Assembly (NCBI GenBank): GCA_965204085.1
Contig: CBDBEE010000002.1
Coordinates: 840,913 to 904,912 of the forward strand
Direction of reading: 5' to 3'
From: Candidatus Poribacteria bacterium
GTDB taxonomy: Bacteria; Poribacteria; WGA-4E; JAJDTR01
Length of the DNA stretch: 64,000 nucleotides
The position numbers and the translations under genes are program-made. Shown piece after piece: positions 51,498-58,369 of the stretch. How positions within the stretch are numbered: the first letter of the stretch is position 1; every line of letters begins with the position of its first letter. The notes beneath the pieces are model-generated. The model was not told where the DNA came from and did no database searches. It worked only from the letters and a program-made list of their open reading frames with translations.

Positions 51498-52012
51498 TCA
51501 GAAAATGTCAGCCAGCGACACGCAACACTTTACTTCATATGCTAACAATTGAATTCTGCGCGGCGTATAATCCTGATTTTCAACGCTAACGCCCATCCAC
51601 ACATTGTCTGGCCAGTCAATTTCAGGACTGAGTTTCTCAAGACGTTCTGCACGTTTGGTCAACACTTGAAAATGGTGCCAGTTGGAACGTTTCATAACAT
51701 CAAAATCTGTCGAATATAGTGAGGAGACACAGCCTCATGGAACAGATCGCTCATGGAATTGACGAAAATCAATTTAGGTTTTTTCCATTTCAACGGCTGT
51801 TCTAACAGGTGTGGCACAGGTCTAATGCGATTTGTCCAACGCGGTCCGGCCTTCGTTTGAATGGCAAGCCCCTCATAAGCTAAACCCTTGCCAGCGAATC
51901 GTTGGGCGATACGTTCCGCGTAGCAGAAACGGCAGCCTTCCGAGACACGAGCACAGCCGCGTACCGGATTCCATGTTGATTCGGTCCACTCTATCTTTGA
52001 TTCCGATGCCAT
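51498..52012 (-). pseudogene. phage Gp37/Gp68-family (DUF5131) gene remnant, frameshifted and C-terminally truncated
   Basis: TEWTESTWNPVRGCARVSEGCRFCYAE is the three-Cys N-terminus of DUF5131. The HHFQVLTKR continuation lies in another frame, in ORF 51498-51695. Confidence 0.6.
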
Positions 52013-52018
52013 TTTCTA

Positions 52019-52444
52019 TCACGCTTTCAGAATGTCTTGAGCAATTTTTACAGCAGTTGAAGCTCCCTTTGGGTTCCCCGCCGCAAAGCAGAGTAGGTAC
52101 AGTGGATTATTCCGGCTATTGTATAAACGCAGGGGATTCTCCGCAACTTCGGTAAAGATCGATCCTAGACGCCTGATGAAATAAGCCTCAATTGAGTCGA
52201 AATCTGCAACCTTTTGTTGCCCTGGAAGGTTCTCAAAAAGGGAGGGTGTTTCATCCTTCTCGTAGAACTCATCAACCCAATCCCCACTTCCAAAAAATTC
52301 GTTAAGGGTATTCTCTATAGCCCGATTAATCTGACCGTCTTTTCTTAGTAGTCTGTTTACTGCAATGCCGAGTGGAAAAAGTAACCACAAATCAATAGCT
52401 TGAGTATCTGCAATTGCTTCTATTGTTTTCCACTTAACCTCCAT
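52019..52444 (-). CDS. hypothetical protein, possible partner of the Gp37/Gp68-family gene (TcmP-like?)
   Basis: 141 aa, immediately upstream of the DUF5131 remnant on the same strand. The family assignment comes from memory of a known gene pairing, not from a motif. Confidence 0.3.
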   Translation of the reverse strand: MEVKWKTIEAIADTQAIDLWLLFPLGIAVNRLLRKDGQINRAIENTLNEFFGSGDWVDEFYEKDETPSLFENLPGQQKVADFDSIEAYFIRRLGSIFTEVAENPLRLYNSRNNPLYLLCFAAGNPKGASTAVKIAQDILKA

Positions 52445-52470: not shown

Positions 52471-53067
52471 TTACTCCGCCATTTTCCGAATCTCAGGACT
52501 GGAAGACATCTGCCGTATCACATCGTCTCCAAGATTTCGGATGGCATCCTTCACAGAGTCGGCAAACGCCTTCCCCTTTGCGCTAAAAAGAACACCTTTA
52601 GCCGAAGCGTGTCCTTTGCCTAACGCCGTAACAGCGGCAATTTCTGTCATTTCGGGACTGTAACAGGTCAGTTTCGCAGTTAGAGAGTTGCTCGATTCGC
52701 TACTGTCTCCGATATAGACGAAGGTTCCTACCTCGTACCTAACCTGTGCAGTGACGACAAGGTTTAGCTGGCTATCGGCTATAGATTCTAATGTCGGGTA
52801 CGAATCTAACGCCTCAACGGAAGCGAAAACGCGCCGAGTCGCTCTGGTAAGGGTCGAAACAAGGTCTTTACCTATTCGCAAATCATACTTCTTTTCGTCA
52901 TCTTTGAGGATTTCGTATCTGGGCTCAAAGGAGGTTATTAGAGACAGGGTGTCTTCAGTGAAAAAAAGGCCGACCCTCAAATCCATGCGATCCGAGTTGT
53001 CGGAACACCCGATGACACCAATCGCAACAGTTATGAGTAAAATGCTGCGGCAATAATCAAACATCAT
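52471..53067 (-). CDS. lipoprotein, paralog 1 of a tandem triplicated family
   Basis: Lipobox IGCSDNSD. Conserved N-terminus MMFDYCRSILLI and C-terminus NLGDDVIRQMSSSPEIRKMAE. Confidence 0.7.
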   Translation of the reverse strand: MMFDYCRSILLITVAIGVIGCSDNSDRMDLRVGLFFTEDTLSLITSFEPRYEILKDDEKKYDLRIGKDLVSTLTRATRRVFASVEALDSYPTLESIADSQLNLVVTAQVRYEVGTFVYIGDSSESSNSLTAKLTCYSPEMTEIAAVTALGKGHASAKGVLFSAKGKAFADSVKDAIRNLGDDVIRQMSSSPEIRKMAE

Positions 53068-53238
53068 TCTTCATCGTCTTTCGAGTGTGAAAATTGAGAT
53101 TGGATACCGGAAAAATTCCCGATTCCACTATCTGAGAAAGACCAGCTTAAGAGTCTATTTGAAAATCCATTTCCAGTAGAACTATGAAACCGAGCCTCTC
53201 TATTGCCCTCATTTGACGACCTCCTTTTCTGGCTTGAA

Positions 53239-53835
53239 CTATGGAGTAATTGTCGCGTTAACTTTCTCCGCCATGTTCCGAATCTCAGGATTGGAAGACA
53301 TTTGCAGTGCCACGTCGTCTCCAAGATTGCGGATGGCAGACTTTGCTGATTTGACACGAGCTCTCCTCTCCGAGCTAAACACAATGCCCTGAGCCGAAGC
53401 GTTTCCTCGTCCAGACGCCTTAATCACTGCGATTTCTACCATTTCGGGATTGTAACAAATAAGTTCAACGCTTATGGTGCGGCTTGCTTCACTCTGATTC
53501 AGCAAACCATTTCCTTGATAGCTGCCGCTGCCACCCATAGACCCAAATTGCACAACGACAGCAAGTTTTAGCTTTCCATTGGCTATTGACTCTTGTGTCG
53601 GATCTGATTCTAACTCTTCAACAGACCTGAAGATGCTCTGAGTCGATCTAATAAGCGTTGATACAACGTCTTCGCCCAACTGTAAATCACCTTCACTATC
53701 CGCAAGCATCAGATTTCGCGTGTTTTCAGCGAAAAAAATGCCGACCTTCAAATCCATCCGATCCGAATTGTCGGCACACCCAACGACAACAAACGTAGTA
53801 GCAATGAGCAATACGCCACGGCAAAAATCAAACAC
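53239..53835 (-). CDS. lipoprotein, paralog 2 of a tandem triplicated family
   Basis: Lipobox VGCADNSD. Termini conserved and central about 100 aa divergent. Confidence 0.7.
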   Translation of the reverse strand: MFDFCRGVLLIATTFVVVGCADNSDRMDLKVGIFFAENTRNLMLADSEGDLQLGEDVVSTLIRSTQSIFRSVEELESDPTQESIANGKLKLAVVVQFGSMGGSGSYQGNGLLNQSEASRTISVELICYNPEMVEIAVIKASGRGNASAQGIVFSSERRARVKSAKSAIRNLGDDVALQMSSNPEIRNMAEKVNATITP

Positions 53836-54009
53836 AATTCTCCATCTCCTTTCAAGTTTGAAAATTGAGTTTGAGTATCGGAAAAATTCCTGATTCCACT
53901 ATCTGAGAAAGACCAGCTTAAGAACCTATTTGAAAATCCATTTCCAGTAGAACTATGAAGCCCAGCCGCTCTATTACCTTCATTTGACGACCTCTTTTTC
54001 TTGCTTGAA

Positions 54010-54633
54010 CTACGGAGTAATTGTCGCGTTAACTTTCTCAGCCATGTTCCGAATCTCAGGATTGGAAGACATTTGTAGTGCCACGTCGTCTCCAAGATTG
54101 CGAATAGCAACCTTCACTGCACCGACAAAAGCTCTCCTTCTTGAGTCAAACAGAATGCCTTTCGCCGTAGCATTCCCTTCCCCTGACACAGTAACCGCGG
54201 CGACTTCTATCATTTCAAGATTGAAACAAGTCAGTTCAGCGGTCAGGGCCCTGCTTGCTTCGCTACTATTCTGGATACTGTTTCCCTCATAGCCGAGGGA
54301 GCCTCCAGCCGGTCTAACCTGTACAACAACGACAACATTTAGCCGTCTGTCGGCTATAGACTCCTTTGTCGGATAAGAGTCTAACACCTCGACAAAAGCG
54401 AAAACGCGTCGAGCCGCTTTGGAAAACGTCGATACAATGTCTTTATCTACCCGCAAGTCGTCTTTTGCATCAAAGACGGGATAGTGATGGGGTTCAAAGG
54501 ACATTGTTAGACGCTGCGTGTCTTCCGTGAAAAAAATGCCGACCTTCAAATCCATGCGATCCGAATTGTCGGCACACCCGATGAGGACAGTCGCAACGAT
54601 AATGAGCAGATTACCACGGCAAAAATCAAACAC
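54010..54633 (-). CDS. lipoprotein, paralog 3 of a tandem triplicated family
   Basis: Lipobox IGCADNSD. Termini conserved and central region divergent. Confidence 0.7.
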   Translation of the reverse strand: MFDFCRGNLLIIVATVLIGCADNSDRMDLKVGIFFTEDTQRLTMSFEPHHYPVFDAKDDLRVDKDIVSTFSKAARRVFAFVEVLDSYPTKESIADRRLNVVVVVQVRPAGGSLGYEGNSIQNSSEASRALTAELTCFNLEMIEVAAVTVSGEGNATAKGILFDSRRRAFVGAVKVAIRNLGDDVALQMSSNPEIRNMAEKVNATITP

Positions 54634-54702
54634 AATCCCACATCTCCCTTCGGGGTCGAAAATTGAGTTTGAGTTCTACAACCGGAATCTTACCGTTCGC
54701 GG

Positions 54703-55257
54703 TTACGCTTTCCGAGAACGTAAGAGAATACCATCCAAATGCAAATGCGTCGCATACCCAATTAAACTCGCCGTGTAGAACGGGAGTCCGGACAGAACAA
54801 GTTCCAAATGATCGGCTGACTTCAAGCTGTCGAAATTAATCGGAGTGCCGTCGAAATAAAATGGTAGCGCGAAGAATACGGCAGGCAAGAGCAGCATCGT
54901 CACTCGCGAATGCGTCCAGCCGCGGTGTTTGCCCAAGAGCGGTAGCATGGCAAAAATCCCCAAGACCGCCGATTGGAGGTACTGCTTTCGAGCAATCAGT
55001 ATGACGCTAAATATAAGGAAAATTCGATAAAAGATCTGCTGACTCCGGCTCTTGATGTCCACGTCGGGCCAAAGTCCCGAGAGCACCGCAACCACAAAAC
55101 ACGCTCCAATGCTCCACGGATCTCCGGGAATGGTGGGATTTCGCTCAAGCGGTACATGCATCGTAAACTGCCCGAAAAGCGAAGCGCCCAACGAAAGTAC
55201 GAAAAACAGCGTGTACGCAACCAAACCGCCGATGTAGTGCTCGCGGAACATGCTCAT
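54703..55257 (-). CDS. membrane-bound metal-dependent hydrolase, YdjM/DUF457-like
   Basis: Polytopic membrane protein with the HRGWTHS motif. Confidence 0.5.
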   Translation of the reverse strand: MSMFREHYIGGLVAYTLFFVLSLGASLFGQFTMHVPLERNPTIPGDPWSIGACFVVAVLSGLWPDVDIKSRSQQIFYRIFLIFSVILIARKQYLQSAVLGIFAMLPLLGKHRGWTHSRVTMLLLPAVFFALPFYFDGTPINFDSLKSADHLELVLSGLPFYTASLIGYATHLHLDGILLRSRKA

Positions 55258-55266
55258 AATCGCGTC

Positions 55267-55620
55267 CTAACCATCGGTAGTATCTCCCGGGAAGAGTTTT
55301 GTGTTCTCCCTATGTCGAATCTTGTCCCGCGTGGTTTTCTTGTCAATCGATTTACGGAACGCCTCTTCCAAATCCACCCCCGTTTGATTCGCCAAACAGA
55401 CGAGCACGAACAGCACATCCGCCATCTCCTCATCCAAGTTAACCGACTTGTCAGACTCTTTGTAGCTCTGATCGCCGTACTCACGTGCCATGACTCGCGC
55501 CAACTCGCCTACCTCCTCCATCAAGATGGCAACATTCGTCAACTCGGAGAAATATCTGATGCCGACAGTTTGGATCCATTCATCTACTAATTCTTGGCAA
55601 TTCTTGAGTGTATACTCCAT
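55267..55620 (-). CDS. MazG-like nucleotide pyrophosphohydrolase (small all-alpha NTP-PPase)
   Basis: EEVGELARV...EEMADVLFVLVCLAN pattern. The start is taken at MEYTLKN. Confidence 0.7.
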   Translation of the reverse strand: MEYTLKNCQELVDEWIQTVGIRYFSELTNVAILMEEVGELARVMAREYGDQSYKESDKSVNLDEEMADVLFVLVCLANQTGVDLEEAFRKSIDKKTTRDKIRHRENTKLFPGDTTDG

Positions 55621-55704
55621 TCCATCCTCTATGAAACTAGAATCGTAAAATCCGCTCTCTATAAACACTCCTCCCCTAGCGAATCATATCACCGAGTCCC
55701 TAGC

Positions 55705-55730
55705 CTGTCAAAGGTTTTCCGACTTGACAG
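55705..55730. promoter_or_regulatory. palindrome CTGTCAA-N12-TTGACAG forming overlapping divergent -35 elements
   Basis: It lies in the 128-nt divergent region between the MazG-like gene (minus strand) and mazG (plus strand). Candidate -10 elements are TAAACT at 55747-55752 (plus strand) and TATGAT at 55683-55688 (minus strand). Confidence 0.4.
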
Positions 55731-56787: not shown

Positions 56788-57750
56788 ATGTTGAACCGAT
56801 TCCTAGATCGGATTATCGTGGGCGATTGCCTCGAAGTCCTTCGCCAGATTCCGGATGACAGTGTTGATGCCTGCTTTGCGGACCCTCCATTTAACCTCAA
56901 GAAAAAGTACACCTCGTACGATGATAAAAAGGCGCTCGAAGGCTATCTTTCGTGGTGCGAAAAATGGCTGTCGGAGTTGGTGCGAGTCACGAAACCGGAT
57001 GGCTCAATCTTTGTCCACAACATTCCGAAATGGCTGACCTATTTTGCCGACCATCTGAACCAGATTGCCGTTTTCCGCCACTGGATTAGCTGGGATTCAA
57101 TGAGCGTGCCGCTTGGCAAGACGCTGCTCCCTGCCCATTACGGCATTCTCTATTATACAAAACGAGCGAAAGGCTTCAAATTCTACGACGTGCGTATTCC
57201 GCACAAAAAATGCCGGCTTTGTGATGGATATCTCAAAGATTATGGCGGGAAAAAGGCGCAGATGCATCCGTTCGGCACGTTGGCAAGCGATGTTTGGACT
57301 GACATCCATCGCATTCGTCACAATAAACGTAGAGATGAACACCCATGTCAACTGCCGGTTCACCTTCTGGAGCGAATCATCCTGATGAGTAGCGATCCGG
57401 GGGATGTTATCCTAGACCCCTTTATTGGCACCGGAACAACCGCAGTTGCAGCAAAACGGTTGGGACGCCATTACATCGGAATTGACATTGACGAGAAATA
57501 CGCAAAGATTGCCAGCGAGAACATTGCAAAAGAAGAGCCTTCGGTTGTTGACGGCAAATACGTATCAATTTTTCTGGAGCGAATCATGTCGATTCGCGAG
57601 GTTGATTGTGCGGAGTTATTCGAGGAACATCAAGAGGATGCGCCCATAGTTCCAGTACCGTCAAACGCCGCCCAGTTGAGACTTTATCAAACCGCCGTCC
57701 AGTATGATGAATCCGGTGGCGAGGAGGAAGAGGTTGCGGTCAATTCATAA
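56788..57750 (+). CDS. DNA methyltransferase (N6-adenine/N4-cytosine, beta class), apparently orphan
   Basis: Motif IV DPPF (CFADPPFN) near the N-terminus and motif I FIGTGTTAVAA near the C-terminus. A Cys/His-containing insert is present (HKKCRLCDGY...HPCQ). No restriction endonuclease gene is nearby. Confidence 0.85.
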   Translation: MLNRFLDRIIVGDCLEVLRQIPDDSVDACFADPPFNLKKKYTSYDDKKALEGYLSWCEKWLSELVRVTKPDGSIFVHNIPKWLTYFADHLNQIAVFRHWISWDSMSVPLGKTLLPAHYGILYYTKRAKGFKFYDVRIPHKKCRLCDGYLKDYGGKKAQMHPFGTLASDVWTDIHRIRHNKRRDEHPCQLPVHLLERIILMSSDPGDVILDPFIGTGTTAVAAKRLGRHYIGIDIDEKYAKIASENIAKEEPSVVDGKYVSIFLERIMSIREVDCAELFEEHQEDAPIVPVPSNAAQLRLYQTAVQYDESGGEEEEVAVNS

Positions 57751-58369
57751 CAATTCCGAATGCGCATCACGACGACCGGTCTATCAACGCAGAATCCTTC
57801 GGGGGTGGTTAGCTCTCGTTATTATCGTACTATCAACCCCGTTGGAAGCAACCTCCGAAAACCTCCTCTCGCGTTCGGATCGAGAGATTTTCGATGCTAT
57901 CTACGATGCCCCGCCGCAACGTCAACCCCTCGGCACTGCCATGGAAGTGGTTACTGAATTCGGAGACCCCAAGACGATGATGGGGCTTTCGATTCTTCTC
58001 ATGGCCTACGGCGACGACAAACCGCGAGACACCGGTAGGTTACTGTCCTCGACATTTATTGCGGGCGGCCTGGTAGTGCTCGGAATAAAGCAGTCAGTCC
58101 GCCGGAAAAGACCACTGGAAGATGAACTTGGCGACCCGTCCTTCCCATCTGGGCACTCCTCAATTGCTTTTTCTATGGCAACGATTCTTGGGCACCAATA
58201 TCCAAGATGGCGGATTCCGCTTTATGTTGGCGCCGGTTTGGTCGGGCTGTCTCGAATCTACTTGGGCAGGCACTACGCCTCCGACGTGTTAATGGGTGCC
58301 GCCGTTGGAACAATCTCGGGAACAATTGTCTGGCGCAACCGAATGACACTGCTCAGTTGGGAATTTTAG
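57704..58369 (+). CDS. PAP2-family phosphatase
   Basis: PAP2 motifs [14 protein letters not shown] and [12 protein letters not shown]. The start is uncertain because it overlaps the methyltransferase gene's 3' end. Confidence 0.75.

Follow-up and report, generated by a model that had tools for sequence, protein, structure and literature searches.

We analysed a 64,000-nucleotide (nt) stretch of Candidatus Poribacteria DNA (contig CBDBEE010000002.1; hereafter the window, with positions counted from its first letter) that carries a tandem array of three minus-strand lipoprotein genes, here called A, B and C. In our judgement, A, B and C are likely to be divergent paralogs of a rare lipoprotein family that occupy a fixed chromosomal slot, recombine only through their ends, have constrained cores and play a presumed role in the cell envelope. 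An earlier note on this DNA had described the array as a repeat with near-identical ends and a hypervariable core, and had proposed gene conversion at the ends. The hypervariable reading, which was the source of the excitement, is unsupported. Tandem paralogs whose gene conversion is limited to the ends are a familiar evolutionary pattern, and no new mechanism is involved; the protein family is undescribed.

The proposed gene conversion at the ends is supported by a gradient of synonymous divergence (dS), mosaic genes, mapped breakpoints, spacers that are 89% identical and a copy number of one to three among related loci. Among the three window copies, dS rose from 0.3-0.5 in the end blocks to 0.7-1.0 in the core, and the non-coding spacers were diverged by about 11%. 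We compared 18 copies from 12 loci (designated by locus and copy, such as L009_1) for mosaic structure, using DNA core types A to D defined on nt 160-480. The 5' end types were uncoupled from the core types. The first 105 nt of gene C were 97% identical to those of L009_1 and 93% identical to those of L007_1, two copies with type B cores that are only about 64% identical to the gene C core, and 96% identical to those of L009_2, which has a type D core. Likewise, the 5' end of gene B was 89% identical to that of L004_1 (type C core), and L001_1, with a type D core, and L006_1, with a type B core, had 5' ends that were 94% identical.

The switches between sequence types were sharp and fell in two conserved blocks. 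L009_1 agreed with gene C at all 17 informative sites as far as nt 54 and thereafter with gene B almost throughout (Fisher p = 4e-17), placing the crossover between nt 54 and 78, within the lipobox-DNSDRMDL block; L007_1 changes from C-like to B-like there as well. At the other end, gene C tracked its type C relative L010_1 to about nt 514 and was gene B-like at every one of the 26 informative sites between nt 534 and 638 (Fisher p = 1e-15), which puts this crossover in the AIRNLGDDV block. The conserved block at this end encodes the C-terminal helix AIRNLGDDV..PEIR. Gene C is a mosaic of a 'GNLL'-type 5' end, a type C core and a type B 3' end, and its 3' tract reads as a gene-conversion or crossover tract. 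Exchange also extends across genomes: between the window and L007, core dS was 0.14 (type B) and 0.08 (type A), whereas ydjM gave 0.44 for this pair of genomes, and therefore the cassettes have moved between lineages.

These observations support unequal crossover or gene conversion that is confined to the two conserved blocks and explains both the copy-number variation and the chimeric genes. The ends and junctions of the array are thus substrates for homologous recombination: in the two blocks and in the conserved scar between the genes, it gives rise to unequal crossovers and conversion tracts, the products being arrays of one to three copies, chimeric genes and core cassettes that move between lineages. 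Mosaics with breakpoints in common sequence, lower dS in exchanged tracts and variable copy number, all of which we found, are features of tandem paralogs in concerted evolution, such as Neisseria opa, Helicobacter hop/bab and tuf/rrn, which also have conversion tracts bounded by conserved sequence, chimeric genes and a copy number that differs among relatives. The array differs from these systems in that conversion is limited to the ends, so that the cores stay 55-72% identical at the nt level and are not homogenised, and in that the inter-gene junction is a recombination scar holding the stub of another gene.

A simpler account would be an old tandem triplication followed by plain divergence, with the ends conserved by functional constraint and no gene conversion. 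In its favour, the conserved blocks map onto structural elements (the lipobox with strand 1, and the C-terminal helices) and remain conserved even in distant homologs of 22-30% identity, and the three copies fall into three old clades. Constraint on the protein nevertheless leaves the lower dS of the ends unexplained, as it does the 89% identity of non-coding spacers beside cores with a dS of 0.7-1.0, the 97% identical 5' end on cores that are 64% identical, and the abrupt switches at informative sites. We regard plain divergence as improbable and prefer end-limited recombination.

The profile along the repeat unit agrees with recombination at the ends. Divergence was non-uniform, as the earlier note had supposed. 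Overall, the three proteins shared 48-58% pairwise amino acid (aa) identity: 60-74% over the N-terminal 42 aa, 42-54% over the core (aa 43-166) and 66-83% over the C-terminal 35 aa. Near-identity of the ends, as previously described, holds for the tails of B and C (100% over the last 32 aa) and for the spacers 53068-53238 and 53836-54009, and fails for the other ends; the core is diverged but not hypervariable. The repeat was measured by a direct-repeat search, which found direct repeats spaced 771-804 nt apart, and by a comparison at a fixed offset of 771 nt, the register of the array. Tandem Repeats Finder reported nothing, the 771-nt period being above its 500-nt limit. At the 771-nt offset, the two junction repeats (Table 1) were 87% identical, rising to 90-97% over 53080-53320. 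Among 51 Poribacteria members of the family, entropy was lowest at aa 20-42 (0.65) and aa 165-199 (0.80). It peaked at 1.52 in an indel-bearing loop (aa 43-60) and at 1.30 in a hairpin tip (aa 108-126); in the remainder of the core it was about 1.0, similar to that of the signal peptide. A T7 homopolymer was observed within the conserved GIFF/GLFF codons of all three genes (about 54529-54545, 53731-53747 and 52960-52976), and thus within the 5' recombination block; a run this short and under such coding constraint does not qualify as a slippage tract.

All three genes, correctly recognised at the outset as consecutive minus-strand lipoprotein genes, are intact. Gene C heads the array, 69 nt downstream of ydjM, and the second ATG of gene A, at 53064, is aligned with the GTG starts of B and C. 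Gene A has a short C-terminus, with a TAA at the position where B and C read AAA and without the KVNATITP tail. Each copy has a signal peptide and the anticipated lipobox, (V/I)GC(A/S)DNSD, following an R-containing n-region (..ATVLIGC/ADNSD in C, ..FVVVGC/ADNSD in B and ..IGVIGC/SDNSD in A, the slash following the Cys). A, B and C thus show the positively charged n-region, hydrophobic h-region and lipobox ([LVI][ASTVI][GAS]C) of a bacterial lipoprotein (Lgt/LspA substrate), and the lipobox Cys was at least 90% conserved among 60 family members. Since every copy has its own Shine-Dalgarno sequence and start codon, the array contains no silent cassettes. Pairwise tblastn between copies gave E-values of 1e-60 to 1e-76, so the repeat is not due to chance; tblastn found no further family members in the 64-kb window. 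The closest proteins to A, B and C were P0032 (93% aa identity), P0035 (88%) and P0001 (82%), respectively, and the database protein P0033, recorded on a 3.1-Mb contig at NCBI and ENA to which the window probably belongs, was 100% identical to the gene B protein. Two long out-of-frame open reading frames (ORFs), 53064-53384 and 53748-54110, were rejected as real genes: they represent the other frame of a gene 3' end plus spacer, and nearly every inter-copy difference alters an amino acid in that frame when their translations are compared by eye. Their earlier interpretation as by-products of the repeat is therefore correct.

The spacers between the genes can be traced to two sources. Following the stops of B and C, each spacer runs TTCAAGC..AAGGAGG..ATG and continues with 12 codons, M(R/K)(A/V)IERLGFIVL. 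This start corresponds to the ribosome-binding site and beginning of a 296/297-aa gene (MRAIERLGFMVLGGALVLVGMCF...) in L007 and L009. The gene follows the lipoprotein in L007, L009 and L017, and the L017 protein (297 aa) is 79% identical to that of L007. From position 56 to its end (125 nt), the spacer matches the upstream region of L007_2 at 90% identity, and its last 75-100 nt are common to the upstream regions of many first copies. The decamer CATGGTTCTA is present in both L007 parental sequences exactly at the switch point: one copy covers codons 9-12 of the 296-aa gene, and the other lies 125 nt ahead of L007_2. This makes the spacer a single illegitimate-recombination junction, formed at a 10-nt microhomology. 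The scar is datable because 12 codons of the neighbouring gene are preserved. L009 carries a matching junction between its B copy and its type D copy; the junction therefore arose once and was then copied. It may have originated as the joint of a tandem duplication, or through deletion of a pair of genes (the 296-aa gene and a DUF805 gene) between two lipoprotein genes.

Each spacer retains a 21-codon stub ORF, a remnant of the 5' end of the 296-aa gene that might, if translated, couple translation between the lipoprotein genes. The two stubs differ by three synonymous and three non-synonymous changes, a balance that speaks neither for nor against a functional small protein. The 296-aa gene itself had no tblastn match in the window. 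As a candidate functional RNA or regulatory element, the spacer was rejected: no Rfam family matched the region, a promoter and terminator scan gave results at chance level, and the spacer is fully explained by its two known flanks. The 296/297-aa gene lies at 3321-4211 in L007, 6422-7315 in L009 and 5645-6538 in L017. Its product is secreted, lacks a Pfam match and contains numerous G-rich repeats, each of some 20 residues (..GG.V.VFGKDGKPRA.LG..). In L017, the start of the gene and the stop codon of the lipoprotein gene overlap, suggesting translational coupling and a functional link.

The core sequences fall into old types. A neighbour-joining tree separated A, B and C into three clades, every one of which also includes relatives found in other genomes or in metagenomes. 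Type A comprises gene A and L007_2 (94% nt identity). Type B comprises gene B, L007_1 and L009_1 (93-94% nt), together with L005_1 and L006_1. Type C unites gene C with L012_2, L010_1 and L004_1 (84-87% nt), and type D includes L001_1 with L012_1 (97%), L002_1 with L009_2 (98%) and L013_1. Cores of different types were 60-75% identical at the nt level. The comparison distinguishes no fewer than four core types (A to D), which are old and discrete; those of the window are kept at 84-94% nt identity across genomes.

We assessed selection by pairwise Nei-Gojobori counting of non-synonymous and synonymous changes. Among the three window copies, the ratio of non-synonymous to synonymous divergence (dN/dS) was 0.38-0.45 for the whole gene and 0.36-0.44 for the core only. 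Within core types, it ranged from 0.23 to 0.73 (about 0.3 at deeper divergence). The flanking genes gave 0.17-0.39 (ydjM) and 0.12-0.27 (mazG-like). No window of 30 codons had a higher proportion of non-synonymous than synonymous differences (pN > pS). The lipoproteins are somewhat less constrained than the flanking genes, with no sign of diversifying selection at pairwise resolution. The cores are under purifying selection or ordinary constraint, and the suggestion that the middle diversifies as in variable surface-lipoprotein families was not borne out.

Assignment of the lipoproteins to known families proved negative. No Pfam family matched A, B or C at E <= 1, NCBIfam gave matches at chance level only, PADLOC and PHROG gave none, and a search of PDB with a 60-sequence profile returned no chain at E <= 10. 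A word-indexed search recovered 53 family proteins, and an exhaustive profile search found only 25 representatives at 50% identity among 1.84 billion. A second profile search, of a 5.8-billion-protein set, added zero close members and retrieved two distant ones again. All close relatives with a name or a confirmed locus come from Candidatus Poribacteria; the one database match with a named source and all six genome loci are metagenome-assembled genomes. A literature search on Poribacteria and lipoprotein yielded nothing on this family.

An AlphaFold2 model of C, built from the family alignment, had a mean predicted local distance difference test (pLDDT) score of 86.4 and a predicted template modelling (pTM) score of 0.79. 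After the signal peptide, the model comprises a strand, a helix, a strand, three antiparallel strands of 17-18 residues and a long C-terminal helix pair. Its fold neighbours (scores in brackets) were PelC (10.3), DUF330 (XCC0632; 10.3), LptE (9.5), the TolB N-domain (9.5), HpaA (9.4), CsgG (9.4), LPP20 (9.0), PqiC (7.9), LpoB (7.8) and TraT (7.5). Foldseek concurred, at low template modelling (TM) scores of 0.3-0.46. The predicted model shares the alpha/beta fold of the LptE/PelC/CsgG/LPP20-like group, and A, B and C represent a family that is new in sequence, with a predicted lipoprotein fold that is already known. We infer that they are envelope lipoproteins with an LptE/PelC/CsgG/HpaA-like fold, and that two elements, the loop (aa 43-60) and the hairpin tip (aa 108-126), would form variable, type-specific faces. 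Like the PelC/LptE/CsgG/HpaA/LPP20/TolB-N group, A, B and C have an N-terminal lipobox and, in the model, an alpha/beta sandwich of long antiparallel strands on helices; unlike the members of that group, they show no sequence-level relationship to it in the Pfam and PDB profile searches. LptE and PelC are, as far as is known, single-copy parts of fixed machines, whereas the present family is multi-copy and strain-variable, with no pel, lpt (lptD), csg or flagellar genes near its slot.

The slot itself was compared across 15 syntenic Poribacteria loci, namely the window and 14 others. The common gene order in these loci was mazG, mazG-like, ydjM, the lipoprotein gene or genes, variable genes, and PhyH or a thiamine pyrophosphate (TPP) enzyme. 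One copy was found at the slot in ten loci (L001-L006, L010 and L017-L019), two copies in four (L007, L009, L012 and L013) and three copies in the window only. The genes on the 3' side of the lipoproteins differ by locus: the 296-aa secreted repeat protein with DUF805, TcmP with DUF5131, or a Rieske-type gene. Over the 15 loci, the neighbours of the slot were mazG, ydjM, the 296-aa repeat protein, DUF805, DUF5131/TcmP and PhyH. The lipoprotein genes are probably co-transcribed with mazG-like and ydjM. The coordinates of the array, its parts and its immediate neighbours are listed in Table 1.

Table 1. Features of the lipoprotein array and of the adjoining genes (positions in the 64,000-nt window)
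Feature	Position	Strand	Remarks
Lipoprotein gene A	52471-53067	-	198 aa; ATG-ATG start; core type A
Lipoprotein gene B	53239-53835	-	198 aa; GTG start; core type B
Lipoprotein gene C	54010-54633	-	207 aa; GTG start; core type C
5' conserved block, gene C	54529-54579	-	Lipobox Cys to DNSDRMDLKVGIFF, about nt 55-105; entropy minimum
5' conserved block, equivalent in gene B	53731-53781	-	
5' conserved block, equivalent in gene A	52960-53010	-	
3' tract of gene C with type B sequence	54010-54109	-	AIRNLGDDV to stop codon; crossover in AIRNLGDDV block
Junction repeat, copy 1	52949-53345	-	3' 107 nt of B, spacer and 5' 119 nt of A
Junction repeat, copy 2	53720-54116	-	3' end of C, spacer and 5' end of B
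C-B spacer	53836-54009	-	Illegitimate-recombination scar
B-A spacer	53068-53238	-	Second copy of scar, 89% identical to C-B spacer
Decamer CATAGTTCTA at scar boundary, B-A spacer	53177-53186	-	
Decamer at scar boundary, C-B copy	53948-53957	-	
21-codon stub ORF in C-B spacer (MKVIERLGFIVLLEMDFQIGS)	53918-53983	-	Shine-Dalgarno-like AAGAGG; first 12 codons match the start of the 296-aa gene
21-codon stub ORF in B-A spacer (MRAIERLGFIVLLEMDFQIDS)	53147-53212	-	AAGGAGG Shine-Dalgarno
ydjM-family inner-membrane protein gene	54703-55257	-	Directly upstream of the slot in every Poribacteria locus examined
Small MazG-like gene	55267-55668	-	Head of the same-strand gene string
Promoter-like site TTGACA-17-TATGAT	55683-55711		Upstream of mazG-like; 11/12 matches
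Truncated TcmP / PADLOC PDC-M41A	52019-52444	-	C-terminal half only (profile positions 156-295 of 298); abuts gene A

On its downstream edge, the array is bordered by the TcmP / PDC-M41A remnant. Next to this remnant, the minus-strand segment 51692-52012 corresponds to the N-terminal 93 positions of DUF5131 / PDC-M41B and seems to be continued after a frameshift in 51498-51695. We regard the minus-strand region 51498-52444 as a candidate degraded defence pair; at the corresponding slot, L017-L019 carry apparently full-length DUF5131 genes. Further upstream, the interval between mazG and PAP2 contains a type II N6/N4 methyltransferase gene (56788-57750, plus strand) and, after it, an ORF (57704-58369, plus strand) at the position where restriction-enzyme genes are called in related loci. 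In this region, a DpnII/BanI-like restriction-enzyme gene was found in L007, L010 and L017, adjoining the methyltransferase in L010 and L017, and both genes are absent from L009, L018 and L019. As the presence of these genes varies among relatives, the whole neighbourhood is a plasticity zone. A distant family member, P0064 (23% identical; L014 4049-6624), lies after RelA/SpoT, a MazG-family gene and an unrelated 205-aa lipoprotein gene, and the linkage of lipoprotein and MazG genes may thus extend beyond the close Poribacteria relatives.

Surroundings of this kind raise the question of whether the genes are an orphan immunity array, in which divergent lipoprotein copies would broaden protection against envelope-acting toxins of the type VI secretion system (T6SS), contact-dependent inhibition (CDI) or bacteriocin type. 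Tandem divergent lipoprotein paralogs with strain-variable copy number, as found here, are typical of immunity arrays in general, and the plastic, defence-rich setting (the variable type II methyltransferase and the PDC-M41 remnants) would suit such a role. However, toxin, Rhs, VgrG, CdiA and T6SS genes were found in none of the 15 loci, and the lipoproteins matched no family in Pfam, NCBIfam, PADLOC or PHROG. The linkage to mazG-like and ydjM is constant, and even the distant P0064 lies near a MazG-family gene. We also know of no toxin-immunity family with an LptE/PelC-like fold, and consider an immunity array unlikely.

We give slightly less credence to programmed phase or antigenic variation of the Mycoplasma Vlp/Vsa or Borrelia Vlp/Vsp/VlsE type, in which a clone would express its copies in turn or recombine them, thereby altering the exposed middle. 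The array resembles Mycoplasma Vlp/Vsa/Vsp and Borrelia Vlp/Vsp and OspC in being a multigene set of lipoprotein paralogs with a conserved leader, conserved 5' and other ends and a more variable interior, and in forming mosaics by the recombination in conserved parts demonstrated above. The core types, moreover, recall OspC types in being discrete, old, allele-like and common across lineages. Neither a switching device nor, by pairwise dN/dS, diversifying selection was found. There is no layout of expression site and silent cassettes, all copies having a Shine-Dalgarno sequence and a start. The ORFs within about 2 kb on either side include no recombinase or invertase, and a 4.5-kb stretch around the array revealed no recombinase, invertible promoter or simple-sequence tract, inverted repeats not having been searched for. 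Tandem Repeats Finder (periods <= 500 nt) revealed no tandem or simple-sequence tract, the T7 run in the GIFF motif being the only exception, and the copies have no internal repeats. Furthermore, dN/dS is below 1 everywhere (0.2-0.7), the window core types are stable at 84-94% nt identity across genomes, and 10 of the 15 loci have a single copy.

An assembly artefact, with strain variants of a single-copy gene misjoined in tandem, is very unlikely: the source is a metagenome-assembled genome and related strains hold different core types at the slot, but cores only 55-72% identical at the nt level are too distant to confuse an assembler, the independent assembly L009 has a two-copy array with a matching scar spacer, the junctions are 89% and not 100% identical, and the contig is 3.1 Mb long.

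Several points weigh against the reading of the array as constrained envelope paralogs with end-limited recombination. Its functional part rests on fold likeness at about 10% sequence identity and TM-scores of 0.3-0.46, and this likeness, which comes from a predicted model, points to no particular membrane, face or partner. The fold neighbours are mostly outer-membrane lipoproteins that face the periplasm (LptE and PelC among them) and include surface-exposed ones (HpaA and TraT). Pairwise counting could miss positive selection that acts on only a few sites, such as some in the two variable loops. The majority of the comparison loci stem from metagenome assemblies, and L012 has 1x coverage and a frameshift. 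Co-transcription was deduced from one promoter-like match and the absence of terminator-like sites in a scan that was at chance level as a whole. Finally, the scar may be read either as a duplication or as a deletion, and the change in copy number either as gain or as loss.

The persistence of old types, the strain-variable presence and the plastic, defence-rich neighbourhood hint at balancing selection by an outside partner such as phage, host or competitors. More specifically, the slot after ydjM could be a cassette locus at which multiple alleles of an exposed envelope lipoprotein of sponge-associated Poribacteria (types A, B, C, D and others) are kept in balance by frequency-dependent selection from phages or host recognition, an idea that we put forward tentatively and that is doubtful at present. 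Under such a model, old types would be shuffled within and between lineages via the two blocks, and the window genome would stack three of them. If true, a symbiont phylum that is uncultivated would have a new and simple system of envelope variation based on an LptE/PelC-like fold. Apart from this idea, the array provides a clean natural case of gene-end-limited cassette exchange with breakpoints mapped to about 25 nt, and defines an unannotated lipoprotein family, found almost only in Poribacteria so far, with a confident predicted fold. For the biology of sponge symbionts, it adds a strain-variable envelope component beside strain-variable defence genes, which may matter for the interaction with phages and the host.

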